64,000 bases of DNA from Rhodoluna limnophila (GCA_945862155.1 CAMAXJ010000001.1:5845-69844); one strand, 5' to 3'; counted from the stretch's first letter, positions 36,389 to 52,100 are shown. The notes: generated from the sequence alone by a model not told the origin. Numbers and translations: made by a program.

Positions 36389-36397
36389 AATCGTTAG

Positions 36398-36589
36398 CTA
36401 CTGAGCGATGCGAATAGCCTGCATCGGGCAGATATCAACCGCTGCCTCGACATTGTCTCGTTCGCTGTCGTCAACTTCGGCCACGTATTCCAACTTGTCC
36501 TCGGCGTTCAATTTGAAAACGGTTGGAGCTTCGAATACGCACTGTCCGTAGTGCTGACACTTGTTCATGTCAACTTCGACTTTGATCAT
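36398..36589 (-). CDS. small [3Fe-4S]/[4Fe-4S] ferredoxin (P450 redox-partner type)
   Basis: 63 aa with CQHYGQC ... CP cluster ligands. It immediately follows the FAH gene with zero spacer. Confidence 0.8.
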   Translation of the reverse strand: MIKVEVDMNKCQHYGQCVFEAPTVFKLNAEDKLEYVAEVDDSERDNVEAAVDICPMQAIRIAQ

Positions 36590-37465: not shown

Positions 37466-38366
37466 GCGAAAGAACCAGGTCCTTTGGTCTTGGGAAGCCA
37501 GCTTCAGGCTCAGGGAAGTAAACGTGAACTTGTCCCGTACCAATTGAGTTTTCATAGTCGGAGTACATAACACCCTTGGCGGTGTTGTCTCTCTCACCGG
37601 TCGCACCAGCCATGGTCAACCAATGGCTGAAGTTAGCCTCAGGCTTGAACTGCTTGAACTCATCCATGGTGTCCAGGATTCGTGCGTGATCTCCCTGCTT
37701 CATCCACTCGATGCGCTCTAGATCTGCAAGGCGCGCACCTTCTGAATAGATGTGGCTTGGGTCAGAGGACTCGTGCTTGCGAAGGTCGCGAAGCTTGTAG
37801 AAAGTGTGAGACAGGGCACCGGAAGCTAGCAGCAATACTTTACGATCGGTGTCGCGAATTGCTTCACCCAAGGCGCGACCGGCGCGCAAGAAATCCTCCG
37901 CTGTTGCAGTTTGGCAAACAGAAATAGAAACCCACTTCTTGTCCAGGCCGCGACCTAGGTAGTGCCAAAGGTTTACAGTGGCATAGAAGATTGGAAGATG
38001 CGGATCGCTAATTGGAGTTATCCAGGTTCCGTTTTTCTCGTCGTATTTCGCAGCTGCCATGGCAAGTTCCGGGTCACCCTTGAATGCGTAGGGAACCTGA
38101 GACATGCCTCGAGGAAGCTCTTCGGAAGTGAACAATCCAGAGCGCTCTGCCTGAGCGGTAATTACAAACTCAACTGTGGTGGCCCAATGGCTGTCAAGAA
38201 CAACTACTGTGTCGTAGTCCAGAGTCTCCATGACCTCTTTGCGGAATCTCTTTAGTCCTGGAACTAGCGAAATCTCCTTGCCCTCGTTTAGGTCATAACG
38301 AACCTTTTCGGGCAACATGATTGTTGGCACGTGAGCCAAGATTGCGGCTCCAACTACTTTTCCCAT
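37458..38366 (-). CDS. class III (LigB-type) extradiol ring-cleavage dioxygenase (HpaD/AmnB-like)
   Basis: MGKVVGAAILAHVP N-terminus, VVLDSHW, LLASGALSH, GTGQVHVYFP. A GGAAGGA RBS lies 6 nt upstream of the ATG at 38366. Confidence 0.8.
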   Translation of the reverse strand: MGKVVGAAILAHVPTIMLPEKVRYDLNEGKEISLVPGLKRFRKEVMETLDYDTVVVLDSHWATTVEFVITAQAERSGLFTSEELPRGMSQVPYAFKGDPELAMAAAKYDEKNGTWITPISDPHLPIFYATVNLWHYLGRGLDKKWVSISVCQTATAEDFLRAGRALGEAIRDTDRKVLLLASGALSHTFYKLRDLRKHESSDPSHIYSEGARLADLERIEWMKQGDHARILDTMDEFKQFKPEANFSHWLTMAGATGERDNTAKGVMYSDYENSIGTGQVHVYFPEPEAGFPRPKDLVLSRD

Positions 38367-38368
38367 TT

Positions 38369-39835
38369 CTATTCCTTCCATCCATTCGGTGAAATAACTG
38401 TGTTCTTTACATCTGCGTAGAAATCAAAAGACCAATTGCCACCCTCGCGGCCGATTCCAGATTTCTTGGAACCACCGAAGGGAGCCTTGAGGTCGCGAAC
38501 AAAGAAGCAGTTAATCCATATTGTTCCAGCAACTACCTCTGAAGCAATCCGCTTGGCATGTTCACGATTGCCTGAAACAATGACGGCTGCCAAACCAAAC
38601 TCGGTGCCGTTGGCCATTTCAATTAGCTGCTCATCTGTTGAAAAAGTCTGCATAGTCAAAACTGGGCCAAAGATCTCGGAGGTGACAATTTCCGCACCCA
38701 CCGGAGGGTTGACAATCAGTGTTGGTCTAAAGAACAGACCCCCCAGCTCACTGTTGGGCTCACCGCCCATAACTACTTTGATGCCGTCGTTCTTTGCGCG
38801 ATCTACAAATCCTTTGATGCGCTCGAAGTGCACTGGATGTATCTGAGGACCGATGTCGGTGTCTGGGTCTCGCGGGTCGCCCTGCTGAAGCTTCGCAGCC
38901 CTTTCTTGGAACTTTTTGGAAAACTCATCGGCAACCGATTCGTGCACCAGCAAACGAGTTCCAGAAAGACAAACCTGACCTGCGTTGTCGTACTGCTCAA
39001 CTGCCAGTTCGGCGGCAAGATCGAGGTCGGCATCTTCCAAAACAATCGTTGGAGATTTTCCACCCAGCTCAAAAGAAACCGGGGTTAGGTTCTCGGCCGC
39101 GGCGTGAGCTATCTTCTTCGCAGTCGGGACAGAGCCGGTGAATGAAATTCTTGCGATATCCGGATGGGAAACTAGAGCGTTGCCAACCTCAGCACCGAAA
39201 CCTTGCACAACGTTGAATACTCCCGCTGGAATTCCTGCTTTCACCGTTAGGTCAGCAAAGAAGGAAGCCGAGAGCGGAGTCCACTCAGCAGGTTTCAAAA
39301 TCACAGTGTCTCCGGCTGCAAGAGCTGGACCAATCTTCCAAGTTGCAAGCATCAGCGGTGCATTCCAAGGTGTCACCAAAACTGCAACCCCGGAAGGATC
39401 CCAGGAGATGTTGTTGGTGTGACCGCGAGTTTCCCAGCTTTCGTGGTGAAGATCGTTGATAGCCCAATCGGCAAAGAATCGAAGGTTTAGTGCAACTCTG
39501 GGCATGACGCCTCGAATATGAGACCTAAGCAAAGAACCATTGTCCAGAGTTTCGAGATTTGCTAGCTGCTCCAGATTTTCTTCGACCAGTGCCGCTAGTC
39601 GATGCAGTAATTCACCGCGGCCCTTGGGTCCCAGCTTGGACCATTCGGGGAAAGCTTTGCGAGCTGCCGCAACAGCTAGGTCAGCTTCGCGCTGACCACC
39701 TTTTGAAATTTTCGCGAGCAGGGCGCCATCAATGGGAGAAAAATTGTCGAAGGTTTCAGATGAGGAAACGCGTTGGCCACCAATGAAGTGACGGGTGTCT
39801 ACGGTAAGGCCCGATAGTGCAACGGTGTCAGTCAC
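38369..39835 (-). CDS. NAD(P)+ aldehyde dehydrogenase (hydroxymuconic-semialdehyde-dehydrogenase-like by context)
   Basis: ALDH motifs FTGSVPTAKKI, ELGGKSP and NAGQVCLSGTR (catalytic Cys). The start is trimmed to GTG 39835 after a GAAGGGG RBS. Confidence 0.85.
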   Translation of the reverse strand: MTDTVALSGLTVDTRHFIGGQRVSSSETFDNFSPIDGALLAKISKGGQREADLAVAAARKAFPEWSKLGPKGRGELLHRLAALVEENLEQLANLETLDNGSLLRSHIRGVMPRVALNLRFFADWAINDLHHESWETRGHTNNISWDPSGVAVLVTPWNAPLMLATWKIGPALAAGDTVILKPAEWTPLSASFFADLTVKAGIPAGVFNVVQGFGAEVGNALVSHPDIARISFTGSVPTAKKIAHAAAENLTPVSFELGGKSPTIVLEDADLDLAAELAVEQYDNAGQVCLSGTRLLVHESVADEFSKKFQERAAKLQQGDPRDPDTDIGPQIHPVHFERIKGFVDRAKNDGIKVVMGGEPNSELGGLFFRPTLIVNPPVGAEIVTSEIFGPVLTMQTFSTDEQLIEMANGTEFGLAAVIVSGNREHAKRIASEVVAGTIWINCFFVRDLKAPFGGSKKSGIGREGGNWSFDFYADVKNTVISPNGWKE

Positions 39836-39929
39836 AATTGCCCCTTCGCAATTCGTTCGGATACTAACAATACAATAAAGCACCCGCGGCCCCAAGGCCA
39901 ACAGGAAGTTCTAACGATCGAAAAAGAAC

Positions 39930-40430
39930 CTAGTCCTGGGCCTCGGTAAAGGCGGTTATCTTCCTCAGGGCAACAGTCAATTCCCGCTTTTCGGTCTTGC
40001 TGAACCCGCTCAAGACCTGTTGTTCGTGGGTGTTGAAATCAGGGAACAGCTTCTTCATAAGGGCCCTGCCTTTGGAGGTTAGAGTCACAATCACCAGACG
40101 CTTGTCCCCGGTGCCAGGATCCCGTTTCAGGTATCCCTTGCCCTCGAGGGTTTGTAGCACGCCGGTGAGGGTCGCCTTAGAAAAGCCGCCTTCTTCCGCG
40201 ATAACCCTGGTCTCGATAGGCTCCCAGATCCAAGACACCCACAGCACCACAAATCCAGTCCAGGAAAGCTCGTGGGGTCCAAGGACAGTGCGTTCAAGAT
40301 AGTTTCTGGTGGCATTGGCGGCGCGGAAGATATTGCTGATCGCAGCCATGGAGTCAAAATCCAGGGTCATGCCAGAGAGCTTGTTTTCAACCTGTCGCTC
40401 GGTCTCACTGAGGGTATGAGCTCCAGACAT
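39930..40430 (-). CDS. MarR-family transcriptional regulator
   Basis: 166 aa with a winged HTH (FSKATLTGVLQTLEGKGYLKRDPGTGDKRLVIVTLTSKG). It heads the ring-cleavage operon and is divergent from the P450. Confidence 0.85.
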   Translation of the reverse strand: MSGAHTLSETERQVENKLSGMTLDFDSMAAISNIFRAANATRNYLERTVLGPHELSWTGFVVLWVSWIWEPIETRVIAEEGGFSKATLTGVLQTLEGKGYLKRDPGTGDKRLVIVTLTSKGRALMKKLFPDFNTHEQQVLSGFSKTEKRELTVALRKITAFTEAQD

Positions 40431-40586
40431 CAGCTTCTCCGATTCGTTGGTATGGCACCTAACAATGACAATAGCCGAGCCTCAGGGACTATTCCCCATG
40501 ACTTTCTGGATATTTGTCCTAAAGGCCCAGTGAAATGTGTAGATTATTAGCGTCCAAACAATCTCCAAAAAAGAGAGAGCTCAACG

Positions 40587-41822
40587 ATGAGTTATAACTT
40601 TGCAGACTTAGACCTATTCGAAAAGGGCGCCCCTTGGCAAGCCTTCGCCGAAGTAAGAGCCACCGGCAAGCCACACTTTTCTGAAGAAGCAGCACCCAAC
40701 CATGGCTTTTGGTCAATCATGGGATACAGCGACATCGTTAAAGTCCTTCGAGACTCAGAGACTTTTACCTCAGAACGCTTCACAAATCTTGAAGAAGTCG
40801 ATGCCGAACAAGAACAGGCTCGCAGATCACTTCTTGAAACAGACGGACTGCGTCACCGAGCACTCAGGCGAATGCTGCAAGGAGAGTTCACTCCGCAGGC
40901 AGTAAGCAAATACGAAACGTTTTTGAGAGGGCTTACAGCCACCACACTAGACAGCGCGTTTGCCAAGGGTGAATTCGATTTCGTTGAAGACGTCAGCGCA
41001 GATTTTCCAATTCGAGTTCTAGCTCGAATACTGGATGTTCCCGACGAAGACACCGGTCAACTAATCGACTGGGGTAACCGAATGATTGGTAACACCGATC
41101 CCGAGCATGCAGATGTTTTGATGGAAGATCCAGAATCAGAAAAGTATCGCCTGGTTCCATTTAGATCCCCTGCAGCACTTGAAGTATTTGAGTATGGTCA
41201 GGCACTAGCTGCCCAGCGACGCGGCAAGGGGAAAAAAGACCTGGTCTCAGTTTTGGCAGATGGCGTCCCATCGGATGGAATTCCACTATCGGAGCGAGAC
41301 TTCAACACAAACTTCCTTTTGTTAGTCGTTGCTGGAAACGAAACTACCCGTCACACCATCTCTCACACCATGAACAATTTGATAAAGAACCCAGACCAGT
41401 TAGCTCTTCTACAAGAAGACCCTTCACTTATTCCATGGGCGGTGGAGGAGTTTTTGAGATTTGCATCACCGGTTTATCACTTCAGAAGGACAACCACTAA
41501 AGATGTCGAAATCAATGGCGTGAAAATCAAGGAAGGCCAAAAAGTATTGCCTTGGTTTGCTTCGGGAAACAGAGACCCAGAAATCTTCAAAGATCCAAAC
41601 AAAATGGATGTGACCAGAAATCCAAACGAACACATGACATTTGGCCGCGGAGGGCCACACATGTGTCTGGGAAATGCCCTAGCTCGAATTGAGATGCGAG
41701 TGATGTTTGAGGATTTGATTTCTCGAATTGACCGCGTCGAGCGAACCGGAAGCATCGATTACCTAAGGTCTAACTTCGTGCACGGCATAAAGAGAATGCC
41801 GGTTAAGGTTCACCTCAGATAA
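40587..41822 (+). CDS. cytochrome P450 monooxygenase
   Basis: 411 aa with I-helix AGNETT, EEFLRF (ExxR), and heme loop FGRGGPHMCLGNALAR. Confidence 0.9.
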   Translation: MSYNFADLDLFEKGAPWQAFAEVRATGKPHFSEEAAPNHGFWSIMGYSDIVKVLRDSETFTSERFTNLEEVDAEQEQARRSLLETDGLRHRALRRMLQGEFTPQAVSKYETFLRGLTATTLDSAFAKGEFDFVEDVSADFPIRVLARILDVPDEDTGQLIDWGNRMIGNTDPEHADVLMEDPESEKYRLVPFRSPAALEVFEYGQALAAQRRGKGKKDLVSVLADGVPSDGIPLSERDFNTNFLLLVVAGNETTRHTISHTMNNLIKNPDQLALLQEDPSLIPWAVEEFLRFASPVYHFRRTTTKDVEINGVKIKEGQKVLPWFASGNRDPEIFKDPNKMDVTRNPNEHMTFGRGGPHMCLGNALARIEMRVMFEDLISRIDRVERTGSIDYLRSNFVHGIKRMPVKVHLR

Positions 41823-42528
41823 GGTTGGCAACTTTCGATAGATAGTTGTCCACCAATTGAAACGTTCTTTGCTTGGCAGCTTCTTCTTCGGCGGCCGTCT
41901 GACTCATCATGACAATCGGATCTTGACCGTCTTGCTGGACCTTCTTGTCCCCGCCCCAGTCGAGCCAACCTTTTAGTCCAGCCGAATCAAGTTCAGGATG
42001 GAATTGAACACCGAGGGACTTATTGATAACAAACGCTTGTGAGGAAACTGGATTGCGTGCGATTTCTTTGACGCCACCAGGCAATACCCATTGGTCGTAG
42101 TGAAATTGGAACCACGGACCATTAGAAACTAGGTCTGGTTCTTCCGACCAAATGTAAGTCCAACCAATCTCGGCCTTAGGTGATCTAGATACCGAACCAC
42201 CAAGCGCTCTGGCAATTAGCTGACCCCCGAAACAAATGCCAAGCACGGGCTTGCCCGATTCGACGGCATTTTTAATCCATGCCAATTCCGGCTGAAGCCA
42301 GTTCCCGATGCAGTCATCGTCCCAGGCGCCCCAAGGTGCCCCTAGGGGAATGATTAGGTCGTAGTTATCTATGTTTGGAAATTCGAATGCCACATTGGGA
42401 GATTCAAAGTTTTCTTCGGGTACCACTAGCTGGGTCTCAATTTCAAAGCCATGATGGGCCAGTCTTTGTCCAACTGGGCCTACCGGGCTGACGTGATCAT
42501 GCTGAATAAATAGCGCTTTCACAATCAC
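41815..42528 (-). CDS. class I glutamine amidotransferase-like hydrolase (candidate gamma-glutamyl-amide hydrolase)
   Basis: 237 aa with nucleophile elbow GICFGGQ and His-Glu VQFHPE. It overlaps the convergent P450 gene by 8 nt. Confidence 0.8.
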   Translation of the reverse strand: MIVKALFIQHDHVSPVGPVGQRLAHHGFEIETQLVVPEENFESPNVAFEFPNIDNYDLIIPLGAPWGAWDDDCIGNWLQPELAWIKNAVESGKPVLGICFGGQLIARALGGSVSRSPKAEIGWTYIWSEEPDLVSNGPWFQFHYDQWVLPGGVKEIARNPVSSQAFVINKSLGVQFHPELDSAGLKGWLDWGGDKKVQQDGQDPIVMMSQTAAEEEAAKQRTFQLVDNYLSKVANLI

Positions 42529-42645
42529 ACTCCCCAGGAATTAGGCCTAGAAAAAAGGTTCCGAGTCGATGCCGGATGGCTTTAGTATATCTCATTAGAT
42601 ACCAAACGATTCAACACCGCATTCATTGCCACAAAGGAGTAGCAA

Positions 42646-43998
42646 ATGGGTAGCTCACTAGAGTCTCTTCAGAAAGAACTCAAGTCCAAGAACATTGACG
42701 TTCTTAGAGTCATTTACTTGGATATTCTCGGCGTCATCAGAGCAAAAGACATGCTGGTATCCCAGCTAGGTCGCATCAATCACGGCGGCCCAGGCTTTTG
42801 TCAGGGCGTGTGGGTGACCACAACAGGCGGTGACGTTCTAGATGGCAACAATCTCGTCACTGACGGACTTGAAGATTTCGTATCTCAAGTGGTGCCCGAG
42901 TCATGGCGCCCACTTCCCTGGGAACCTGGAGTGGCATACGCCGTTGCAGGAGCAAACAACCCAGACGGAAGCAAGAACCTACTCTCACCGCGAAACGTTT
43001 TGGAATCTGTTGTTGCAAAGTACCAGGCACTGGGACTTCACCCAATTGTTGGACCAGAGCTCGAGTTTTACATCGCAGAACAGGACGAGAACGGAAAGTA
43101 CCGCAGGGCTATCGAACACAAGGGACAGGTTTACACTTCTGGATCTGTAGTTGACCCTAAGGGTACTTTCCTAAATCTCCTTCGTATGGTTGACCAAATG
43201 GACATCGGCGTATTTGCCGGTAACCATGAATTCAGCCCATCCCAGTACGAGATTAACTTTTGGCACGGTCCAGCGGTAGATGCCGCTGATCGAACACTTC
43301 TATTCAAAACTGCAGTGAAAGAAGTTGTTGCGAGGGCCGGTCAGCACGCAACCTTCTGCGGTAAGCCATGGAGCGATGAGGGTGGAAGCGGATTCCACCT
43401 TCACTTCTCGGTAGAAGATGGTAAGGGCAAGAACCTAATGCACGATGGCGGCACTGGACTTAGCGAAGTTGGTCTCCAGATAATCGCTGGTATCACCAAG
43501 CACGCTGCTGCACTGACAGCCATCTGTAACCCAACAATCAACGCCTTCAAGAGACTCGGCCCTGACACGCTCGCGCCTTACCGCGCGAACTGGGGATTCG
43601 ATAACCGTTCAGCAATGGTTCGCATCCCGCCAGAGCACGGAGCCGGAACCAGGCTCGAAGTTCGAGTTGCTGATGGAGCTGCAAACCCATATCTGATGAT
43701 TGCTGCAATTTTGGCTGCTGGTTTGGATGGGATCCAAAGCAAGCTAACAGCACCAGAGCCAGTTGTTGGACTGTCTTATGAGAATGAATCGGCCCCGGTA
43801 CTTCCGATGAGCTTGGAAGCTGCGCTGGATGCACTCGAAGCTGACACCGTACTTCGTGATTTGCTAGCTGGGCCTATTGTTGATGTCTTCCAAATCTTGA
43901 AGCGCGATGAAGTAAAGCGCTACAAAGAAGCTGTTTCTGATCCGAACACTCGAGACACTACCGACTGGGAAGTCAAGGAGTACATGTCAGATTTCTAA
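42646..43998 (+). CDS. glutamine synthetase family protein (gamma-glutamyl-amine synthetase-like: GlnA3/PuuA/IpuC/TdnQ type)
   Basis: 450 aa with the GS catalytic-domain pattern (GPELEFY, HEFSPSQYEIN, GSGFHLHFS, NAFKRL, NRSAMVRIP). Confidence 0.85.
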   Translation: MGSSLESLQKELKSKNIDVLRVIYLDILGVIRAKDMLVSQLGRINHGGPGFCQGVWVTTTGGDVLDGNNLVTDGLEDFVSQVVPESWRPLPWEPGVAYAVAGANNPDGSKNLLSPRNVLESVVAKYQALGLHPIVGPELEFYIAEQDENGKYRRAIEHKGQVYTSGSVVDPKGTFLNLLRMVDQMDIGVFAGNHEFSPSQYEINFWHGPAVDAADRTLLFKTAVKEVVARAGQHATFCGKPWSDEGGSGFHLHFSVEDGKGKNLMHDGGTGLSEVGLQIIAGITKHAAALTAICNPTINAFKRLGPDTLAPYRANWGFDNRSAMVRIPPEHGAGTRLEVRVADGAANPYLMIAAILAAGLDGIQSKLTAPEPVVGLSYENESAPVLPMSLEAALDALEADTVLRDLLAGPIVDVFQILKRDEVKRYKEAVSDPNTRDTTDWEVKEYMSDF

Positions 43999-44010
43999 AG
44001 TCAAAAGACT

Positions 44011-44829
44011 TTAGACAGTTGGATCGGAAAAGTCCGCAACCAAAGTTCCACCTGCAAAGGTGACTCCTAGTTCGCGGTAGTAACCTCCGAGTACTTTTTC
44101 TACTGGAAGAATTGAACCCAACTCGTCCCACTGCGAATCTCCAAGAACAATTTCGGCGTCACCACTCCAGGTCACACCAATTTCAGCATCGCTGGAACCA
44201 AGTGAAACAAGTTGGTCTAACGAGTTACCTTTTCCTGGAGTAATCGAAGGCATCCAACGACTGTGCAACATTTTGTGTCCGTTCACAAAACCATTGCTGT
44301 CAGAGGGCTGACGCAATGTAACAATCGCACTAGCAAGTCTGTGATCGTAGGCCGAAACGCTCGCACCTAGCTTCGCGCCGGGCTCAAGCTTTGGTGTTGC
44401 CTGACCGTTATTGAAAACTCTTGTGACGGCAATGCTGCCAAGTTTTTTGGGGTAGCCCTGGAACCAACCTCGTGCAATTGCGAAATCTTTTGTCACCCAG
44501 ATTGCAACACAGCGTGAATACGTGACGTCTTTGTATTTGCAGCGAATGACAACGAAAGTTTCGAGATACTGCGATCGAACTGGATCTAGCAGTTCTGCCT
44601 TTGATGTCGAACATGATTGCCAGTCGGCCCAGATGATTGCGACACCACCTGGCTGATCGTCCGCTAACTCCACTCCCTCCGGAAACAGCGCAGCAACGTT
44701 TTTGGGATCGGTTAGATACTCAACCGTTAGAAGGGTGCCCGAGTAAAGCCAAGGCATTTCTGGGATGATTGCGCTTTTACCCGTTGGGGTTTTAGGGGCT
44801 AGAAATCCACGTAATTTGCTCATGGACAA
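44011..44829 (-). CDS. acetoacetate decarboxylase (ADC) family protein
   Basis: 272 aa. ADC-fold pattern with a WFQGYPKKLG Lys-Lys motif resembling the Schiff-base lysine pair of ADC/MppR/Sbi00515-type enzymes. Confidence 0.7.
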   Translation of the reverse strand: MSMSKLRGFLAPKTPTGKSAIIPEMPWLYSGTLLTVEYLTDPKNVAALFPEGVELADDQPGGVAIIWADWQSCSTSKAELLDPVRSQYLETFVVIRCKYKDVTYSRCVAIWVTKDFAIARGWFQGYPKKLGSIAVTRVFNNGQATPKLEPGAKLGASVSAYDHRLASAIVTLRQPSDSNGFVNGHKMLHSRWMPSITPGKGNSLDQLVSLGSSDAEIGVTWSGDAEIVLGDSQWDELGSILPVEKVLGGYYRELGVTFAGGTLVADFSDPTV

Positions 44830-44988
44830 TAGGGTACAGAGTCATTTGGGTACAAACGAGGCATTTTTGAGTATTTTTCTTCATGAATTTCGCCTCGGCG
44901 ACTTGACCAAATGGGCGATTAGGGCAAGATTAGTCATATCGTTTTGACACAAACGATTCTCCATTCAATGAAGAAGGGAGCCATATAC

Positions 44989-46473
44989 ATGGCCAAAGAA
45001 TCAAGCACCTCGCTGCGCAAAGGCCGTCTTGGCGTAGCGGGAATCGTATTTTTCGTGGTGGCAGCTAGTGCCCCACTGGTAGGAATGACCGGAGCTGTTC
45101 CGGTAGCCATGCTCCTAGGAAATGGAGCAGCCACCCCAGGTGCCTATCTGGCAGTCGGAATAACACTTCTGATTTTCTCAGTCGGTTATGCAGCTATGAG
45201 CCACAAGGTAACTAACGCCGGAGCATTCTTTGCCTACGTCGGAAAAGGCCTTGGCGTAAACGCCGGAGTCGGTTCTGCTTATGCATCGATTGTTGGATAC
45301 GTAACTATCCAGCTGGCAATCTATGGATTCTTCGGATTGACCATGGGTTTGACCATGGCGCAGTTCGGCGTGGATCTGGCTTGGTGGGTTTGGGCGCTAA
45401 TTGCCTGGCTACTGGTCACCGGTCTTTCACTTCTGAGCGTTGACATCGGAGCAAAAATTCTCGGTGTTCTGCTTGCTGTTGAATTGCTATCGCTACTTGT
45501 GACCGCTGTTGCAATTTTGATCAACGGTGGACCCGAAGGCGCGAACGTAGGAGCTTCGTTTGATCTAGGCCTAGTGTTTGCTGGTGGCTTTGCTGGAACT
45601 GCTGGAATTGCTTTGGCATTTGCCTTCGCATCCTTCATCGGATTCGAAGCAACAGCAATCTATGGCGAAGAGTCCAAAAACCCTAAGCGCGATGTCCCTA
45701 GAGCTACTTACTGGGCAATTGGAATCATCAGCGGTTTGTTTGCTGTAGTTTCCTTCGCAATGGTTACTGGTATGGGCGCGGGTGCAATCATCGACCAGGT
45801 TGTCGAGCGCTCAGGCGGACTAGCCGATCCTTCTGCTGTTTTGTTTAGCTTGGCAGCAGAGTATGTATCACCTGAAATTGTTGTGGTAATGGCACTGCTT
45901 GTTGTCACCAGCTTGTTCGCCGGACTATTGGCGTTCCAGAATGCTGCTGCAAGGTACTTCTTTGCTATGGGCCGCGGAGGCGTTATGCCTTCAGCTTTGG
46001 GTAGAACCAACGCTGCTGGCGCGCCACAAAATGGAGCAATCCTAACCTCAGTAATTGCAGCTGCAGTGATCATTGCATTTGCGGCAGCTGGGTTGGATCC
46101 ATTCCTGAACCTGTTTAGTTGGATGAGCGGTGTTGCAGTTATCGCTGTGGTGGCCGTTGAGATTCTGGTTTCCGTTGCAGTAATCGCCTTCTTCCAGAAA
46201 AACGGTGGCGGTAACCTGTGGAACTCCAAGATCGCACCTGGAGCATCCATCGTGCTTCTTATCGCAGGGCTTTACATGCTTATGGCCCGCTTCAACTTGC
46301 TAGCTGGAACTGCTGCCGATGGAGTCGACCCATCGCTACCAGAGTCTGGTTGGGCATTGAGCGGACTCGGCTGGTTCCTAGTGCTGTCCCCATTCATCGC
46401 ATTCATTATTGGCTTCGTGGTGTCCTCCACTAACAAGTCCAAGAACGCTGCACTGGTTAAGGACTTTGCGTAG
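44989..46473 (+). CDS. APC-superfamily amino acid/amine permease
   Basis: About 12 TM segments. The start is trimmed to the ATG at 44989, 8 nt after a GAAGGGAG RBS. The longest ORF starts at 44944 (TTG). Confidence 0.85.
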   Translation: MAKESSTSLRKGRLGVAGIVFFVVAASAPLVGMTGAVPVAMLLGNGAATPGAYLAVGITLLIFSVGYAAMSHKVTNAGAFFAYVGKGLGVNAGVGSAYASIVGYVTIQLAIYGFFGLTMGLTMAQFGVDLAWWVWALIAWLLVTGLSLLSVDIGAKILGVLLAVELLSLLVTAVAILINGGPEGANVGASFDLGLVFAGGFAGTAGIALAFAFASFIGFEATAIYGEESKNPKRDVPRATYWAIGIISGLFAVVSFAMVTGMGAGAIIDQVVERSGGLADPSAVLFSLAAEYVSPEIVVVMALLVVTSLFAGLLAFQNAAARYFFAMGRGGVMPSALGRTNAAGAPQNGAILTSVIAAAVIIAFAAAGLDPFLNLFSWMSGVAVIAVVAVEILVSVAVIAFFQKNGGGNLWNSKIAPGASIVLLIAGLYMLMARFNLLAGTAADGVDPSLPESGWALSGLGWFLVLSPFIAFIIGFVVSSTNKSKNAALVKDFA

Positions 46474-46488
46474 GAATAATTTGAAAAC

Positions 46489-46528
46489 AATTAGCTGGGG
46501 GCCAACTAAGTTTGGCCCCCAGCTAATT
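46489..46528 (+). terminator. 17-bp perfect inverted repeat (terminator or protein-binding palindrome)
   Basis: AATTAGCTGGGGGCCAA - CTAAGT - TTGGCCCCCAGCTAATT, 15 nt after the permease stop. No U-tract follows. Confidence 0.55.
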
Positions 46529-46536
46529 CCAGGAAG

Positions 46537-46794
46537 GTGATTGTGGATAAAGAATTTGACCTTGATGTCACATTTGAACAGCAAGCCGACGAGGCATTAA
46601 TTGCTTCGCTTAGTCCTGAAAAACTCTCTAAGCACATTCAGAATCTTCCTGCCGACTTAGTAGATGCAGCAACCGGAATTCTTATCGAACACAGAACCTA
46701 CTCCGATGTCTCGCAGCAACTGGGCATTAGGCAGCAAGAACTCGTCAGAGCCGTTCATCGCGCAAAACTACTTATTAGCGAGTCTCAAAACTAA
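46537..46794 (+). CDS. stand-alone sigma-70 region-4-like HTH protein (or fragment of an ECF sigma factor)
   Basis: 85 aa. LPADLVDAATGILIEHRTYSDVSQQLGIRQQELVRAVHRAKLLI matches the sigma region 4.2 pattern. GTG start after an AGGAAGG RBS, and a stop codon lies 10 codons upstream in frame. Confidence 0.5.
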   Translation: MIVDKEFDLDVTFEQQADEALIASLSPEKLSKHIQNLPADLVDAATGILIEHRTYSDVSQQLGIRQQELVRAVHRAKLLISESQN

Positions 46795-46892
46795 ACAAAC
46801 TGCGCAACACATCCGTCTAACTGGCATGCAAATCGCCATTCGAAACATTTGAAGTCTTTAACCACCACCCTTATCGTCTGAGAGAGTCCAAA

Positions 46893-48251
46893 GTGAGTTA
46901 CACACTTATCAACCCGGCAACCGAAGAGTCGATGGAGACTATCGAGCACCTCGACGCGAGGCAAACCGATGAAGCGATCGAAAAGGCAGTCAAGGCCCAA
47001 GAGAAGTGGGCAGCACTAGCTCCTGGCGATCGAGCCATGTTGCTTAGGCGTTTTGCGTCAGCAGTTGATGCCGACAACGAAAACTTAGCTCAACTGGAAG
47101 TTAGAAATTCTGGACACCCAATTGATCAGGCGCGCTATGAAGCCAACAATGTTCGCGATGTTTTGAATTACTACGCCGGAGCACCAGAGCGACTAGTTGG
47201 CAAACAAATTCCGGTAGCCGGTGGAATTGCAGTTACATTCCATGAACCAATCGGCGTGGTTGGAATGATCACCCCTTGGAACTACCCAATGCCAATTGCT
47301 GGCTGGGGAATGGCCCCCGCTCTTGCGGCGGGGAATGCAGTGGTTCTAAAGCCTGCTGAGTGGACCCCACTTACCTCGATGCGCTTAGCCGAGCTTGGAT
47401 TAGAAGCAGGATTACCCGAGAACTTGTTTCAGGTCCTGAATGGGAAAGGAACCGTTGTTGGAGAGCGCCTAGTCACCAACGAAAAAGTCGGGAAGATTGT
47501 TTTCACTGGTTCCACTTCGGTTGGAAAGCACATCATGCGCGGTGCCGCTGATCAAATCAAACGCGTAACGCTAGAACTTGGCGGCAAGAGCGCCAACATC
47601 ATTTTTGAAGACGCCGACGTTGTGAAGGCTGCAACCACTGCGCCTTATGCGGTTTTTGAAAACGCTGGGCAGGACTGCTGTGCGAGATCAAGAATTTTGG
47701 TGCAGAGATCCGTCTACGACAAATTCATGGAAGCTTTAGAACCGGTAGTCAAAGCAGTAAAGGTGGGAGACCCAAGCCTTAGCGGAACAGAAGTTGGCCC
47801 CTTGGTGAGTAAAGCGCACCGCGAAAACGTCAGTAGTTTCCTCGATGGAGCCGACGTTGCATTTCAAGGCAGCGCCCCAACCGGAAAAGGCTTTTGGTTT
47901 GCCCCAACTGTTGTTCTAGCAAAGAGCCCAAGCGATAGATGCATGGCGGAAGAGATTTTTGGCCCGGTAGTAACCGTTTATCCGTTTGAGACAGAAGCCG
48001 AAGCAATAGAGCTGGCAAACGGGACAGAGTACGGACTATCTGGTTCGATTTGGACACGCGATTTAGGACGTGGCATCCGCGTCTCAAGAGCTGTGCAAAG
48101 TGGAAACCTTGCCGTGAATTCTCATTCGTCTCTTAGGTACACAACACCATTTGGTGGCATGAAGCAATCTGGTATGGGTCGTGAACTCGGTCCAGACGCA
48201 CCACTTCACTTCACAGAAGAAAAGGTAGTTTTCTTCAATTCAAATAGCTAG
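46893..48251 (+). CDS. NAD(P)+ aldehyde dehydrogenase (PuuC/IpuH-like by context)
   Basis: 452 aa with FTGSTSVGKHI, ELGGKSA and NAGQDCCARSR. GTG start. Confidence 0.85.
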   Translation: MSYTLINPATEESMETIEHLDARQTDEAIEKAVKAQEKWAALAPGDRAMLLRRFASAVDADNENLAQLEVRNSGHPIDQARYEANNVRDVLNYYAGAPERLVGKQIPVAGGIAVTFHEPIGVVGMITPWNYPMPIAGWGMAPALAAGNAVVLKPAEWTPLTSMRLAELGLEAGLPENLFQVLNGKGTVVGERLVTNEKVGKIVFTGSTSVGKHIMRGAADQIKRVTLELGGKSANIIFEDADVVKAATTAPYAVFENAGQDCCARSRILVQRSVYDKFMEALEPVVKAVKVGDPSLSGTEVGPLVSKAHRENVSSFLDGADVAFQGSAPTGKGFWFAPTVVLAKSPSDRCMAEEIFGPVVTVYPFETEAEAIELANGTEYGLSGSIWTRDLGRGIRVSRAVQSGNLAVNSHSSLRYTTPFGGMKQSGMGRELGPDAPLHFTEEKVVFFNSNS

Positions 48252-48263
48252 AGCAGATAACCG

Positions 48264-49148
48264 CTATCGATTCTGGTAGCCGCTGGCAATTTCCAAAACC
48301 GCAAGAGCGCCAAGTCGAACAGTTCTGCCGTCGGCACTGTCAGCCATCGCGTCAATCTCTGTGACGTCAACAGATCGAACTTGTTTTGCTTTTCCAACCA
48401 GGAATGCAAACTGGCGCAGCTCATCAGCCGAAATTCCTCCCGGTGCAGCAGCCGGACAGGCTGGAACAAAAGCTCGATCACAAACATCCATGTCGAAATC
48501 AACATGAAGTTGCTTGTTGCCAAGTTTTGAAAGAGCCTCATCCATCACAGAGTCGGCACTTCTATTTCTTAGTGCTGAGCGTGGAATTACGTGAACACCG
48601 TACTCTTTTGCCCTTGCTGCATACTGTGGTGAATTTGAAAAGTCATTTATTCCAATTTGAACAACGCTCGTGCCGGGAAGACCCGCTTCAATCAGTCGTC
48701 TAACTGGAGAGCCATTTGAAACGCCATCACGAAGATCGTGATGGGCATCAAATGTAATCAAGCCACTTGATGCGAGCTCATCGCCAAACACTCCGCGCAT
48801 GACGGCATAGGTAATTGAGTTGTCGCCACCGAGGGCGATTGCAAGACCAGAATTTTTAGTTACTCTTGCGGCAAGCCCCATCGTTGTTTCTTCGCCGTCG
48901 GGAGAATCCGGAGTTTCGGAATCTCCAAAATCTGCGATTGAGAGATCTCTGACATCTTTGCCCTGGCTCCAGCTGTAAGTGGAGTAGCGAGCTAGCGCGA
49001 CTCTGATCTCTGTTGGGGTGGCATCGGCGCCGGTTGCCGAAATGGATGTCCCGGACGCCAAAACCCCAAACAGCCCTAAGTCATACTGACCTGATCCTGC
49101 TGGGCTTAGCCAGCCGGCGGCTCTAGGCCACAGAGCGTCTTCGCTCAC
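48264..49148 (-). CDS. hutG: arginase-family ureohydrolase, formimidoylglutamase by hut context
   Basis: 294 aa with metal motifs FDAHHDLRD and DFDMDVCD, and GGDNS where arginases/agmatinases have GGDHS. Divergent from hutU. Confidence 0.65.
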   Translation of the reverse strand: MSEDALWPRAAGWLSPAGSGQYDLGLFGVLASGTSISATGADATPTEIRVALARYSTYSWSQGKDVRDLSIADFGDSETPDSPDGEETTMGLAARVTKNSGLAIALGGDNSITYAVMRGVFGDELASSGLITFDAHHDLRDGVSNGSPVRRLIEAGLPGTSVVQIGINDFSNSPQYAARAKEYGVHVIPRSALRNRSADSVMDEALSKLGNKQLHVDFDMDVCDRAFVPACPAAAPGGISADELRQFAFLVGKAKQVRSVDVTEIDAMADSADGRTVRLGALAVLEIASGYQNR

Positions 49149-49243
49149 TTTTGGTCCAATCGATTCTTTGGCAAAACGTGCAAGTCATTTGAGATTACCC
49201 TGTTAGCAGGGCTTTATAAACATCGATGTTGATGGAGAAAAAC

Positions 49244-50908
49244 ATGACCACTTATACCCGCGGGGATCTGCACGCAGCCACCGGTTCAACTCTCACCGCA
49301 AAGGGCTGGGGTCAAGAAGCAGCACTTCGAATGCTGCATAACAACTTAGATCCAGCAGTTGCCGAGCATCCAGAAGAACTTATTGTTTACGGCGGCAGCG
49401 GTAAAGCAGCTCGCAACTGGGCAAGCTTCGACGCGATAGTAAAGACCCTCACAAACCTAGAAAACGACGAGACCATGCTGGTCCAATCCGGAAAGCCAGT
49501 TGGTGTCTTCCGCACCCACGAGTGGGCACCTCGAGTAATCCTTGCTAACTCCAACTTGGTGGGCGACTGGGCCACCTGGCCAGAATTTAGAAGACTCGAG
49601 CACCTGGGCCTGACGATGTACGGTCAGATGACTGCAGGATCTTGGATCTATATCGGAACTCAAGGAATCCTTCAGGGAACCTACGAAACATTTGCAGCTG
49701 TTGCTGCAAAGAGATTCGGCGGAACACTAGCTGGAACACTTACCCTGACCGGTGGTTGCGGAGGTATGGGTGGAGCTCAGCCACTAGCTGTAACAATGAA
49801 CGAGGGAACCTGCTTGATCATTGACGTTGACGAATCAAGACTTAGAAGAAGAATCCAGGACCGCTACCTCGACGAACTAGCCGACAACATAGATGATGCA
49901 ATTGAAAAAGTGCTCAAGTACAAGTCGGAGAAAAAAGCTATCTCGGTTGGACTTGCTGACAACGCGGCAACAATCTTTACTGAGCTATTGAAGCGCGATA
50001 TTCCAATCGATATAGTTACCGACCAAACCTCGGCTCACGATCCCCTTTATTACATTCCTGAAGGTGTAAGCGTCGAAGATGCGAGGGCGATGGCCGAAAA
50101 GGATCCTGCAGATTTCACAATCCGTGCGGAAGCTGCAATGGCTAAGCACGTTGAGGCAATGGTTGGCTTTATGAACAAAGGGGCCGAAGTCTTTGACTAC
50201 GGCAACTCAATTCGCGATGAAGCTCGAAAAGGCGGCTTCAAAGACGCCTTCAAGTTCCCAGGATTTATCCCGGCATACATCAGACCGTTGTTCTGTGAAG
50301 GTAAAGGCCCGTTCCGCTGGGTAGCACTTTCGGGAGATAAGAAAGATATCTATCGCACCGATCAGGCAATTCTTGATCTGTTCCCAGACAATGCTCACCT
50401 GCACCGCTGGATCAAGATGGCTCAAGACAGAGTGCAGTTCCAAGGACTCCCAGCAAGAATTTGTTGGCTTGGTTACGGCGAACGTGACAAAGCCGGAGCT
50501 GTGTTCAATGATTTAGTAAAAAAAGGAGAGGTGTCCGCACCGATTGTTATCGGACGAGACCACTTGGATTGTGGATCGGTTGCTAGCCCGTACCGCGAAT
50601 CAGAAGCCATGCTCGATGGCTCCGATGCCATCGCTGACTGGCCACTGCTAAACGCGATGATCAACATCGCAAGCGGTGCTTCTTGGGTTTCAATCCACCA
50701 CGGCGGCGGAGTTGGTATTGGAAGATCCATTCACGCCGGTCAAGTTTCTGTTGCTGATGGAACCGATCTTGCAGCTGAGAAACTAAACAGGGTTCTCACC
50801 AACGATCCAGGCATGGGAGTGATTCGTCACGTTGATGCCGGATACAAGGAAGCAGAAGGCGTCGCAAGAGCCAAGCATGTACACGTGCCAATGCTCGACA
50901 CCGAGTAA
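49244..50908 (+). CDS. hutU: urocanate hydratase
   Basis: Highly conserved urocanase sequence ([48 protein letters not shown]). I prefer the ATG at 49244 after a GGAGA RBS; the longest ORF starts at 49226. Confidence 0.95.
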
Positions 50909-50912
50909 ACAC

Positions 50913-52100
50913 ATGTCTCTTGCAATTACCAATATTGGTTCTTTAGTCACCAATAATCCCAATCTTGGATCTGGCATACTAGGCGAACTAGAAAACGCAG
51001 GCGTTGTAATTGAAGACGGAAAAATTGTTTGGGTTGGCAGTTCCAGATCAGCACCTGCAAGCGATCAAACAATTGACGCCCAAGGAATGGGAGTAATCCC
51101 GGGCTTTGTTGATTCACACGCCCACATGGTTTTTGCAGGGGATAGATCCAAAGACTTTGAAGCCCGCATGAACGGCGAGAAATACTCGGCCGGTGGAATC
51201 AAATCAACTGTTGCAAAAACACGCGCTGCAAGCGATGCCGAACTAGAAGCCAACTTTTTATCTTTGCAAAACGAAATGATTCGCTCCGGAATCACTACCT
51301 TTGAATCAAAATCCGGCTACGGACTATCGGTTCATGATGAAGCCCGCTGTCTTGCAATCGCGGCAAAGCACACCAGTGAAACCACCTTCCTTGGAGCCCA
51401 TGTGGTTCCAGAAGACTACGCCGGCAGAGCCGACGACTACATTGCGCTTGTGACCGGTGAGATGCTGCAATCTTGCGCACCGCATGCGAAGTGGGTGGAT
51501 GTTTTCTGTGACGTCGGAGCATTCGATGTTGATCAGTCGCGTGCGATTCTCAAGTCAGGAATTGCCAAAGGCCTGATGCCTCGCATTCACGCCAATCAGC
51601 TAGCTCAAGGCGGCGGCGTCCAGCTGGCAGTTGAGCTTGATTGTGCATCGGCTGATCACTGCACACACCTTTCTGCCAAAGACATCGAAGCACTCGCCGG
51701 TTCCAATACCGTTGCCACCATGCTTCCAGGGGCTGAGTTTTCCACCAGAGCTAACTACCTAGATGCCAAGAAGCTCTTTGCTGCAGGTGTCACAGTTGCC
51801 CTTGCAACGGACTGTAATCCAGGCTCGAGCTATACGACGTCTATGGGCTTTTGCATTGCGGTAGCAATCAGGGACATGGGATTTAGCCCAGAGCAGGCTC
51901 TTTGGTCGGCAACTCTAGGAGGCGCGAAGGCCCTTAGACGAACTGACATCGGCGCACTCTCTGTTGGCATGAGCGCGGACTTTTCAATTCTTTCGGCCCC
52001 AAGTTTTAGACACCTGGGCTATCGCCCAGGAGTAGATCAGATTTCACAAGTACTTAGAAGCGGCAAAACCATCTATAAGCACCAGGACGGAACTAAATGA
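50913..52100 (+). CDS. hutI: imidazolonepropionase
   Basis: Amidohydrolase motifs (GFVDSHAHMVFAG, FCDVGAF, IHANQL, ADHCTHL, LATDCNPGSS). The start is trimmed to the ATG at 50913, just after the hutU stop. Confidence 0.9.
   Translation: MSLAITNIGSLVTNNPNLGSGILGELENAGVVIEDGKIVWVGSSRSAPASDQTIDAQGMGVIPGFVDSHAHMVFAGDRSKDFEARMNGEKYSAGGIKSTVAKTRAASDAELEANFLSLQNEMIRSGITTFESKSGYGLSVHDEARCLAIAAKHTSETTFLGAHVVPEDYAGRADDYIALVTGEMLQSCAPHAKWVDVFCDVGAFDVDQSRAILKSGIAKGLMPRIHANQLAQGGGVQLAVELDCASADHCTHLSAKDIEALAGSNTVATMLPGAEFSTRANYLDAKKLFAAGVTVALATDCNPGSSYTTSMGFCIAVAIRDMGFSPEQALWSATLGGAKALRRTDIGALSVGMSADFSILSAPSFRHLGYRPGVDQISQVLRSGKTIYKHQDGTK

Follow-up and report, generated by a model that had tools for sequence, protein, structure and literature searches.

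A conserved gene cluster from a Rhodoluna-like actinobacterium that very likely joins gamma-glutamylation of aromatic amines to a cytochrome P450 and extradiol ring cleavage

What might a glutamine synthetase (GS)-family ligase, a cytochrome P450 and an extradiol ring-cleavage operon do together, side by side on one chromosome? The question is raised by 64,000 nt of DNA from Rhodoluna limnophila (GCA_945862155.1 CAMAXJ010000001.1:5845-69844), the whole of which we call the window. The window has a flat G+C content of about 50% and belongs to a Rhodoluna-like member of the Microbacteriaceae; its GS-like gene is 100% identical to a copy on the 1.29-Mb chromosome OZ248465.1 ("Microbacteriaceae bacterium MiE-23b"). 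A preliminary description of the genes between 40587 and 48251 had proposed a gamma-glutamylation pathway for amines that joins a P450, with its ferredoxin (Fdx) and ferredoxin reductase (FdR), to the adjacent extradiol operon.

Our analysis of the gene content of the cluster and its conservation across lineages supports this proposal, above all through an operator shared by the two sets of genes and the loss of ammonium-site residues from the ligase. We think it very likely that the cluster forms one conserved regulon by which an aromatic amine is catabolised through gamma-glutamylation, with a P450 joined to extradiol cleavage. With a confidence that falls somewhat short of even, we further suggest that 35186-46794, together with an accessory aldehyde dehydrogenase (ALDH), serves the uptake and breakdown of a phenolic arylalkylamine of the tyramine or dopamine type, by N-gamma-glutamylation and by cleavage of the ring while the amine is still glutamylated. 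The genes and sites are as follows (aa, amino acids; GATase, glutamine amidotransferase; HTH, helix-turn-helix).

35186-36388, minus strand: ferredoxin reductase (FdR), FAD/NAD, 400 aa; Pfam Pyr_redox_2 and Reductase_C
36398-36589, minus strand: ferredoxin (Fdx), 63 aa; Pfam Fer4_15 / Fer4_13 on the identical gene in locus L001
36590-37420, minus strand: FAA-hydrolase-family enzyme (FAAH), 276 aa, HpaG-like; PF01557
37458-38366, minus strand: LigB-type (class III) extradiol ring-cleavage dioxygenase (LigB), 302 aa; PF02900
38369-39835, minus strand: ALDH1, 488 aa, HpaE-like, a muconic-semialdehyde-type dehydrogenase; PF00171
39930-40430, minus strand: MarR-family regulator, heading the minus-strand operon and divergent from the P450 gene; PF01047
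40543-40562, no strand: operator-like palindrome 1, ATTATTAGCGTCCAAACAAT, marR-P450 intergenic region, found by pattern match
40587-41822, plus strand: cytochrome P450, 411 aa, CYP125/124-related; PF00067, with AGNETT, EEFLR and FGRGGPHMCLG
41815-42522, minus strand: stand-alone class-I GATase-fold hydrolase, 235 aa; PF00117 and PF07722, with GICFGGQ and FHPE
42591-42610, no strand: operator-like palindrome 2, CTCATTAGATACCAAACGAT, GATase-GS intergenic region
42646-43998, plus strand: GS-family ligase, 450 aa; Gln-synt_C, 315 bits
44011-44823, minus strand: acetoacetate-decarboxylase (ADC)-superfamily enzyme, 270 aa, MppR/Sbi00515-like; PF06314, 181 bits
44938-44957, no strand: operator-like palindrome 3, ATCGTTTTGACACAAACGAT, a perfect 7+7 inverted repeat, ADC-APC intergenic region
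44989-46473, plus strand: APC-superfamily permease, 494 aa from the ATG at 44989; PF00324 and PF13520
46537-46794, plus strand: small conserved HTH protein, 83-85 aa, tentatively KorA / sigma-region-4-like from weak matches
46893-48251, plus strand: ALDH2, 452 aa, accessory and lineage-specific; PF00171

The P450, GATase, GS-family, ADC-family, APC, 85-aa and ALDH genes thus lie between 40587 and 48251 as first described, and the P450 and GATase genes are indeed convergent, overlapping by 8 nt at 41815-41822. The open reading frame (ORF) of the permease spans 44944-46473; the ATG at 44989 is its likely start because it is the start in the gene call of L001 and because the operator overlaps an upstream TTG. 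On the other side of the P450 gene, the genes for MarR, ALDH1, LigB, FAAH, Fdx and FdR form a tightly packed minus-strand unit running from 40430 down to 35186. Fdx and FdR are the presumed electron supply of the P450, and the best NCBIfam matches of FdR are ferredoxin-NAD+ reductases. Their position within the LigB operon means that the presumed redox partners of the P450 are co-transcribed with the ring-cleavage genes.

A single 20-bp palindrome, with the consensus ATCGTTT-N6-AAACGAT, occurs in all three divergent intergenic regions of the cluster (marR-P450, GATase-GS and ADC-APC), where it lies 30-45 bp upstream of the plus-strand genes for the P450, the ligase and the permease. Counting these sites within the window is circular, since the pattern was derived from them; the independent evidence is their conservation across lineages. 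Equivalent palindromes stand at the same positions in Rhodoluna, Microcella, Rhodoglobus, Planktophila-type and Aurantimicrobium loci, and the AACGATT core of the palindrome is found in 16 of 26 GATase-GS regions and in 22 of 25 ADC-APC regions. The second palindrome is less symmetrical in the window than in other lineages, such as Microcella (TATCGTTTGATACCGAACGATC). Because this operator-like palindrome is both shared and conserved, we conclude that the amine genes and the ring-cleavage operon make up one regulon. The palindromes are most likely read by the MarR protein. The only other near-match to the pattern in the window (4912-4931, minus strand, one mismatch; about 0.6 expected by chance) is probably fortuitous.

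Comparison with other genomes shows how regularly these genes travel together. Relatives of the ligase were sought in one genome per species, which gave 33 loci, and the remaining cluster proteins were placed on those loci by tblastn; the counts cover 32 related genome loci and are given per assessable locus. The P450 gene adjoins the GS-like gene in 23 of 24 loci, and the APC permease and ADC-family genes are each present in 22 of 24. LigB, FAAH and ALDH1 are each found in 17 of 18 loci, Fdx in all 18 and MarR in 15 of 18, and FdR is syntenic (42-95% identity) wherever the loci extend far enough. The GATase, which the preliminary description had placed in a trio with the P450 and the ligase, is conserved in 20 of 24 loci and proves dispensable in several lineages, being missing from four Planktophila-type loci. 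The carriers include Rhodoluna, Pontimonas, Rhodoglobus, Microcella alkaliphila, Aurantimicrobium and Ca. Planktophila, the last from a different order than the Microbacteriaceae. FAAH is 80-97% identical among the actinobacterial loci. The identities to the Planktophila proteins are high (P450 76%, FAAH 81%, LigB 77%, ADC 72%, ligase 60%), which suggests lateral spread of the cluster among freshwater Actinobacteria.

Plasmid records were searched by tblastn for clusters beyond the taxa of the genome scan, and the association of a P450 with a GS-like gene is also seen in Streptomyces canus and Novosphingobium. The S. canus plasmid (L036) carries Fdx-FdR-ADC-ALDH-LigB-FAAH adjoining GS-P450, plus an APC permease (P450 61% and LigB 63% identical to the window proteins). 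Novosphingobium EMRT-2 (L037) has MarR, LigB (59%), P450-GS-ALDH, ADC and FAAH-ALDH-Fdx, its FAAH being 74% identical. The GATase gene is missing from both clusters. On the S. canus plasmid there is, in addition, a second and unrelated P450 (24% identical) with its own ferredoxin and an F420-dependent luciferase-like oxidoreductase (1289-3851), which may provide extra oxidation steps for a less oxidised substrate. A trio of GATase and P450-GS genes lies on the megaplasmid of Ruegeria sp. TM1040 (L038, 6493-14686), beside paaABCD, a paaE-like gene and a GntR regulator, with a P450 that is 39% identical to that of the window; this setting hints that trios of the Ruegeria type feed phenylacetate catabolism, perhaps from phenylethylamine. 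Sagittula stellata has a GS-GATase-P450 operon.

Names in the databases conceal these relationships. RefSeq calls the LigB homologues of Novosphingobium EMRT-2 (L037 10976-11833, WP_136957710.1) and Streptomyces lunaelactis (L040 4569-5543, WP_108155225.1) "catechol 1,2-dioxygenase", which is probably wrong for both: judged by homology they are LigB-family extradiol dioxygenases, the orthologues in Novosphingobium and Streptomyces being 59-63% identical to the LigB of the window. The S. canus orthologue is named "3,4-dihydroxyphenylacetate 2,3-dioxygenase". An intradiol route, considered on account of the Novosphingobium annotation, was rejected, as that protein is the LigB orthologue with 59% identity.

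Is the ligase an ammonia-using enzyme? Families were assigned to the cluster proteins with Pfam (run on window proteins from 27953 onwards), with NCBIfam models at their curated cut-offs and by sequence matches to the PDB. The protein matches Gln-synt_C and has no Pfam Gln-synt_N match. Its scores lie below the cut-offs for GlnA (TIGR00653; 263.8 bits, cut-off 429), for type III GS (TIGR03105; 270.6 bits, cut-off 469.6) and for gamma-glutamylputrescine-type enzymes (NF045547 GGputSyn; 243.7 bits, cut-off 650), and it is therefore not PuuA-type. In GS the ammonium site is formed by Asp50'/Ser53' of the N-terminal FDGSS motif and by the flap residue Glu327 (S. typhimurium numbering). Alignment to the B. 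subtilis GS structure 4s0r puts FCQGVWV in place of F-DGSSI and PDTLAP in place of the flap PGYEAP, and the metal, ATP and glutamate residues are kept (GPELEF, NHEFSPSQYEINF, KPWSDEGGSGFHLHFS, NRSAMVRIP and RLEVR). With FDGSS and the flap Glu exchanged for other sequence, the catalytic, ATP and metal residues intact and every score under the GlnA, GS III and GGputSyn cut-offs, we predict that the protein is not an ammonia GS and is a gamma-glutamyl-organic-amine ligase (GoaS type, the group of PuuA, IpuC, AtdA1/TdnQ, NpaA1, GlnA2-4 and GmaS) in a clade of its own. Its relatives in the PDB include GmaS (7cql, 186 bits; 9qur, 181 bits) and NpaA1 (8wwu, 154 bits), and it is about equally distant from the GSI-alpha, GmaS and NpaA1 structures. 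Every database name for it reads "glutamine synthetase".

The GATase has the Cys motif (GICFGGQ) and the His-Glu motif (FHPE) of its fold. Its best PDB match is a stand-alone GATase of M. smegmatis (7D54, 190 bits), crystallised with Gln. The GATase also matches Pfam Peptidase_C26 (34 bits, threshold 20.5), its best match being a different GATase branch. We propose that it is a gamma-glutamyl-amide hydrolase or a glutaminase. The best NCBIfam matches of the APC permease are weak and are ethanolamine and polyamine permeases; we propose that it is an amine importer.

The P450 carries all heme motifs. Its best PDB match is the reconstructed ancestor CYP125MRCA (8vxi, 8vxg; 353 bits, with about 50% identity as estimated by eye), and the extant CYP125, CYP124 and CYP268 structures score about 210-218 bits. 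No genes of sterol catabolism lie near the P450 gene, and the features expected of a CYP125 sterol C26-monooxygenase are not found. Evidently, some members of the CYP125-like family have roles other than sterol oxidation in aquatic bacteria with streamlined genomes.

The ring-cleavage enzymes resemble those of homoprotocatechuate catabolism and fall short of equivalence. LigB scores 132 bits against HpaD_Fe (cut-off 316), with 3,4-dihydroxyphenylacetate 2,3-dioxygenase (8iq8, E 9e-22) as its best PDB match, followed by aminophenol dioxygenase beta subunits. The best NCBIfam match of ALDH1 is HpaE (505 bits, cut-off 638), and FAAH, the proposed decarboxylase/isomerase of the ring-fission product, scores 200 bits against HpaG-C-term (cut-off 276). 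That all three lie under the HpaD, HpaE and HpaG equivalog cut-offs fits a side chain other than carboxymethyl. None of the products of the cluster is an HpaF isomerase, an HpaH hydratase or an HpaI aldolase.

The ADC-family protein, listed at first as one neighbour among others, turns out to be more than a side item. It aligns end to end with MppR (4jm3) and Sbi00515 (4zbo/6eej) at E values of about 1e-44 and keeps their Schiff-base Lys (GYPKKLG). Against the MppR model TIGR04460 it scores 174.6 bits, below the cut-off of 380, and its context is catabolic. Both MppR and Sbi00515 carry out pyruvate aldol addition and dehydration on 2-oxo acids. Across the loci, the ADC gene shares the fate of the ring-cleavage genes, accompanying LigB, FAAH and ALDH1 where they occur and missing, as they are, from the short loci L018, L025 and L028. 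Because of this co-variation we tie the enzyme to ring cleavage, where it is probably the hydratase-aldolase of the route, standing in for HpaH and HpaI.

The variant clusters bear on the order of events. The three loci just named have a short form, FdR-Fdx-MarR / P450 / GATase / GS / APC, of which L023 and L026 give partial views. Displaced ring-cleavage genes were sought in the flanks of the short form; glycosyltransferases and other unrelated genes were found there instead. Plasmid pSLUN1 of S. lunaelactis (L040) presents the opposite case. It has MarR and orthologues of the ligase (43% identical), LigB (63%), ALDH1 (62%), FAAH (70%) and ADC (57%), and its cluster has neither a P450 nor any other oxidase. 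It carries a genuine amino-acid permease and a group-II pyridoxal-phosphate decarboxylase, which among solved structures is nearest to bacterial decarboxylases of tyrosine and aromatic amino acids, and a further operon there encodes a PuuC-like ALDH and a PuuD-like Peptidase_C26 hydrolase. With this decarboxylase and no P450, the amine in S. lunaelactis would come from amino-acid decarboxylation, be glutamylated and be processed further only by way of ring cleavage.

Genes of the Puu type recur elsewhere. PuuD-like hydrolases are found inside the cluster, alongside the GATase, in L017, L019, L042 and the Rhodoluna locus L006. A second ALDH gene recurs beside the permease or FdR gene; outside Rhodoluna-like loci it is not orthologous to ALDH2. 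The second ALDH of Planktophila is 57% identical to the PuuC-like ALDH of S. lunaelactis, and that of L042 scores above the cut-off for aminobutyraldehyde dehydrogenase. Loci L019 and L042 have, in addition, a class-III aminotransferase and another ALDH. In the window itself, the best NCBIfam match of ALDH2 is the aminobutyraldehyde dehydrogenase PRK13473 (438 bits, below the cut-off of 615), and the PuuC model gives 324.7 bits (cut-off 850); related clusters have clearer PuuC-like genes (554 bits). We propose that ALDH2 oxidises a terminal aldehyde. An ALDH had been counted as part of the signature of the pathway; the gene at 46893-48251 lies outside the conserved core, and it is the type of enzyme, PuuC-like or aminobutyraldehyde-type, that recurs in other clusters.

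We postulate the following pathway. The APC permease would bring in an arylalkylamine, and the GS-like ligase would join it to the gamma-carboxyl of glutamate in an ATP-dependent reaction. The P450, supplied by Fdx and FdR, would convert the gamma-glutamyl amide to a catechol, a step that would not be needed for a substrate that is a catechol from the outset, as in S. lunaelactis. LigB would then open the ring with the amide in place, and the masked amine could not cyclise onto the ring-fission product. Free substrates of the 3,4-dihydroxyphenylalanine (DOPA) type do cyclise after ring fission, which is the chemistry of betalamic acid formation. By analogy with homoprotocatechuate, ALDH1, the FAAH decarboxylase/isomerase and the ADC-fold hydratase-aldolase would act next and, from an ethylamine side chain, yield pyruvate and gamma-glutamyl-4-aminobutanal. 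This aldehyde is the substrate of PuuC and might be oxidised by a PuuC-like ALDH (here ALDH2). A gamma-glutamyl hydrolase (here the GATase-fold protein, in relatives a PuuD-like one) would finally free glutamate and an omega-amino acid such as 4-aminobutyrate (GABA). The common palindromic operator at the three divergent promoters would coordinate expression.

That the amine would stay glutamylated through ring cleavage is suggested by the P450-less cluster of S. lunaelactis, with its aromatic-type decarboxylase, and by the recurring PuuC- and PuuD-like genes. The same observations suggest that glutamate is removed late, and the preliminary suggestion of de-glutamylation right after the P450 step is probably incorrect.

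The substrate, the site of P450 attack and the order of the steps are what we infer, and several findings weigh against them. The P450 is nearest to terminal hydroxylases that act on lipids and sterols, and phenol hydroxylases are not among its nearest relatives. There is no operator-like site before ALDH2, which may be an unrelated neighbour; the PuuC-like ALDHs score near phenylacetaldehyde dehydrogenases; and the window has no PuuD-like gene. Three further observations count against catechol formation followed by cleavage of a glutamylated ring, and they are best considered together with the explanation that they favour.

This explanation, which we consider unlikely and nonetheless the most serious of the alternatives, is that the P450 hydroxylates the carbon beside the amide nitrogen. 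The resulting N-dealkylation would release an arylacetaldehyde together with glutamine, or with glutamate and ammonia, as the carbinolamide collapses by itself or is hydrolysed by the GATase. An ALDH would then give 3,4-dihydroxyphenylacetate or a relative, followed by meta-cleavage of the homoprotocatechuate type with the ADC enzyme replacing HpaH and HpaI. P450 attack beside an amide nitrogen has been proposed for the piperidine route of Pseudomonas and the pyrrolidine/morpholine routes of mycobacteria. The short form, flanked by unrelated genes, makes little sense for a P450 that only produces a catechol, which would need ring-cleavage genes elsewhere in the genome, and N-dealkylation explains it as a self-contained unit. 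Similarly, the GS/GATase/P450 trio of Ruegeria, which lies beside the phenylacetate (paa) genes with no ring-cleavage dioxygenase, better fits conversion of an amine to an aldehyde, as N-dealkylation would have it. The loss of the hydrolase from several lineages is accounted for as well, since glutamine would be usable as such, and the glutamine in the closest solved structure of the GATase is compatible with a glutaminase role. The ring-cleavage enzymes do, moreover, match the HpaD, HpaE and HpaG models best. However, none of the three reaches its equivalog cut-off, and the accompanying HpaF, HpaH and HpaI are absent from the cluster. In S. lunaelactis, the ligase and the ring-cleavage set occur without a P450 or oxidase, so the amine could not be removed before ring cleavage. 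N-dealkylation would also leave the second, PuuD-like hydrolase beside the GATase (L017, L019 and L042) without a role, and, with a single oxygenase, it would require that the Rhodoluna substrate already be a catecholamine.

We find it improbable that the cluster is instead an Ipu- or Puu-like pathway for a small aliphatic amine or a polyamine, in which the P450 hydroxylates or oxidatively deaminates the far end of the gamma-glutamyl amide in place of the IpuD hydroxylase or the PuuB oxidase and the ring-cleavage module is separate, the aromatic genes merely sharing the neighbourhood and the redox partners. The gene set (GS-like ligase, P450, Fdx, FdR, hydrolase, permease and ALDH) does equal the Ipu inventory, the P450 is related to the terminal hydroxylases CYP125, CYP124 and CYP153, and the weak best matches of the permease are transporters of ethanolamine and polyamines. 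The clusters repeatedly contain aminobutyraldehyde-type or PuuC-like ALDHs, PuuD-like hydrolases and an aminotransferase, and the short form lacks ring-cleavage genes altogether. On the other hand, the ring-cleavage and amine genes are interleaved, with ADC between GS and APC and with Fdx and FdR in the LigB operon, and they have a common operator. The combination recurs in Streptomyces and Novosphingobium in other gene orders, and the ligase keeps the ring-cleavage set where the P450 is missing, there beside an aromatic-type decarboxylase.

An arylamine route in the style of Tdn, Atd or Npa, acting on aniline, an aminophenol or an aminobenzoate through a gamma-glutamyl anilide, with the P450 replacing the Rieske dioxygenase and the GATase serving as an overflow hydrolase, is in our judgement quite improbable. 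It would explain why GS-like and GATase-like genes lie by oxygenase and meta-cleavage genes, which is the Tdn/Atd/Npa layout, and it agrees with the detectable relationship of the ligase to NpaA1 (8wwu, 154 bits) and with the resemblance of LigB to aminophenol dioxygenase beta subunits. The ligase, however, stands nearer to GSI-alpha and GmaS than to NpaA1. A Rieske oxygenase is lacking, and one P450 hydroxylation cannot make a catechol from an anilide unless the substrate is phenolic. The amino-acid decarboxylase of the S. lunaelactis variant gives an alkylamine side chain, and the recurring PuuC-like, PuuD-like and aminotransferase genes would have no role.

Chance juxtaposition around an ordinary ammonium-assimilating GS paralogue, for which one might cite genes that alternate in strand over at least five transcription units and the uniform name "glutamine synthetase", is very improbable and, as an objection raised in the preliminary description, not borne out: the trio of P450, GS-like and GATase-like genes occurs across two actinobacterial orders and in Ruegeria and Sagittula, synteny is kept across orders and phyla, the operator is common to the regions and conserved, and the ligase has lost its ammonium-site residues and scores under the GlnA cut-off.

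How does the arylalkylamine pathway that we favour relate to described systems? In the Ipu system of Pseudomonas sp. KIE171, as summarised in two later papers, isopropylamine becomes L-alaninol by way of gamma-glutamyl intermediates (de Azevedo Wäsch et al. 2002, cited in PMC1713258, PMC11335346). The Ipu homologues on the plasmids of Arthrobacter aurescens TC1 are likewise clustered and do not form one operon. Ipu and our cluster both bring together seven families (GS-like ligase, P450, Fdx, FdR, GATase-fold hydrolase, permease and ALDH). Ipu, which serves a small aliphatic amine, lacks a ring-cleavage dioxygenase, an FAAH and an ADC-family enzyme, whereas our cluster has a CYP125-like P450 whose redox partners share a transcript with an extradiol dioxygenase. 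That our cluster is linked to aromatic ring cleavage speaks for a substrate other than isopropylamine.

In the Puu system of E. coli (PuuP/A/B/C/D), as in our proposal, ATP-dependent gamma-glutamylation masks the amine while the remainder is oxidised, an ALDH acts on the gamma-glutamyl amino-aldehyde and a Peptidase_C26 hydrolase removes glutamate; related clusters have PuuC- and PuuD-like genes. Unlike Puu, the region 35186-48251 encodes no PuuB-type FAD oxidase (amine-oxidase/DAO-type), its only flavoprotein being FdR, and the amino-aldehyde would stem from fission of an aromatic ring, not from oxidation of a diamine. The likeness to the Hpa/Hpc system of E. coli and Klebsiella lies in the LigB-type dioxygenase, the semialdehyde dehydrogenase, the FAAH-family decarboxylase/isomerase and the MarR-family regulator. 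The differences are the sub-cut-off scores of LigB, ALDH1 and FAAH and the ADC-superfamily enzyme, which probably replaces hydratase and aldolase. MppR, an enzyme of enduracididine biosynthesis, and Sbi00515, for their part, are biosynthetic or of unknown physiological role, whereas the ADC enzyme of the window stands in a catabolic ring-cleavage context.

AtdA1-A5, TdnQTA1A2B and NpaA1-A5 use a gamma-glutamylanilide or gamma-glutamyl-naphthylamide route (PMC11335346). In these systems, as in our proposal, a ligase of the "GoaS" class and a GATase-like hydrolase precede an oxygenase that receives the glutamylated aromatic amine, with meta-cleavage to follow; NpaA1 is a distant relative of the ligase. 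Their oxygenase is a two-component Rieske enzyme, whereas our cluster has a P450 and no gene for a ring-hydroxylating dioxygenase, and the comparative evidence points here to an arylalkylamine derived by decarboxylation and not to an arylamine. By analogy with all of these systems, the cluster would consist of an Ipu-like upper part, an Hpa-like middle and, probably, a Puu-like tail, with an ADC-superfamily enzyme that occurs in none of them, and it falls short of the curated thresholds for each.

The preliminary description regarded this combination as absent from known pathways, and a search of full-text literature, with subscription-only literature outside its scope, found no description of a GS-like/P450/extradiol cluster or of the catabolism of gamma-glutamyl-tyramine or gamma-glutamyl-dopamine. 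The sole contexts in which the searched literature mentions gamma-glutamyltyramine are the biosynthesis of methanofuran/methylofuran and lists from metabolomics. The pathway thus appears to be undescribed. In its chemistry it extends known gamma-glutamyl strategies and introduces no new principle, and its substrate is inferred. It would widen gamma-glutamyl "protecting-group" catabolism, as in Puu, Ipu and Atd/Npa, to the combination of a P450 with extradiol cleavage. If the proposal is true, it would be the first case in which gamma-glutamyl protection is kept through aromatic ring fission, and it would give the MppR/Sbi00515 branch of the ADC superfamily a physiological role in catabolism.

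Lake metagenomes, and the acI bacteria that rank with the commonest members of the freshwater bacterioplankton, often contain near-identical clusters; single 90%-identity clusters of the ligase hold 220-280 sequences, and a genome of about 1.29 Mb retains a cluster of about 12 kb. This suggests that aromatic amines, as an overlooked class of dissolved organic nitrogen and carbon, are important to these bacteria. We regard it as a reasonable possibility, if a somewhat doubtful one, that freshwater Actinobacteria (Luna/Rhodoluna and acI/Planktophila) and certain bacteria of soil and sea use this very route to degrade biogenic aromatic amines, with a catechol made by the P450, fission of the glutamylated ring, an ADC-fold enzyme and a Puu-like tail. 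As the ligase is named "glutamine synthetase" and two LigB orthologues "catechol 1,2-dioxygenase", metabolic reconstructions of these lineages miss the pathway. The operator and MarR offer a handle on the inducer, and Microcella, Streptomyces canus and Novosphingobium are culturable carriers.

The small protein encoded 3' of the permease gene had been called a sigma-4-like HTH. The ORF is real and conserved, with homologues in long-form loci, 3' of the APC gene or, in distant loci, of the FdR gene; the assignment to sigma region 4 stays below threshold in Pfam and Foldseek. The homologues of the 85-aa ORF share the motif RTxSDVSQxLGIRQxELVxxxHRAK, and two of them match Pfam Sigma70_r4_2 below threshold (E 0.003-0.1). 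An AlphaFold2 single-sequence model of the protein (predicted local distance difference test score 73.5) resembles KorA and region 4 of extracytoplasmic function sigma factors in Foldseek (template-modelling score about 0.55-0.6, E 4e-3 to 0.3). Tentatively, the model depicts a helical HTH protein with weak likeness to KorA or sigma region 4, and the protein is a possible second regulator. Between the permease gene and the 85-aa ORF, at 46491-46530, lies a perfect 17-bp inverted repeat (AATTAGCTGGGGGCCAA ... TTGGCCCCCAGCTAATT), which looks like a terminator or attenuator and would keep transcription of the permease gene separate from that of the small HTH gene and of ALDH2. Scans with Rfam and for tRNAs gave no riboswitch or RNA element within the cluster.

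Beyond ALDH2, at 48264-53587, hutG (arginase family, minus strand) is divergent from hutU-hutI-hutH, a complete histidine-utilisation set in which hutU scores 918 bits, well above its model cut-off. ALDH2 and the hut genes hold their position only in Rhodoluna-like genomes. We considered whether the hut genes and the arginase-family gene might belong to the pathway, as part of a guanidino or imidazole amine route suggested by the similarity to MppR, and rejected this, because they are a standard histidine-utilisation set and because their synteny with the amine cluster is limited to Rhodoluna-like genomes.

The amine cluster sits between two conserved blocks of an actinobacterial chromosome-origin neighbourhood (16890-26900 and 54685-63850). 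The origin-proximal block has dnaA-dnaN-recF-gyrB-gyrA, then tRNA-Ile(GAT) and tRNA-Ala(TGC), with dnaA to gyrA named from ORF size and order alone; the block later in the window has ppiA, a rhomboid gene, a trpG-like GATase gene, pknB, pknA, pbpA and rodA. In Microcella, the amine cluster is elsewhere, between genes for UvrD-type helicases. At 27953-30189, two genes overlap, the stop of the first with the start of the next: they encode a carbon-nitrogen hydrolase (nitrilase/amidase superfamily) and another permease of the APC family, and the two are possibly a further small pair for the uptake and hydrolysis of an amide or amine.

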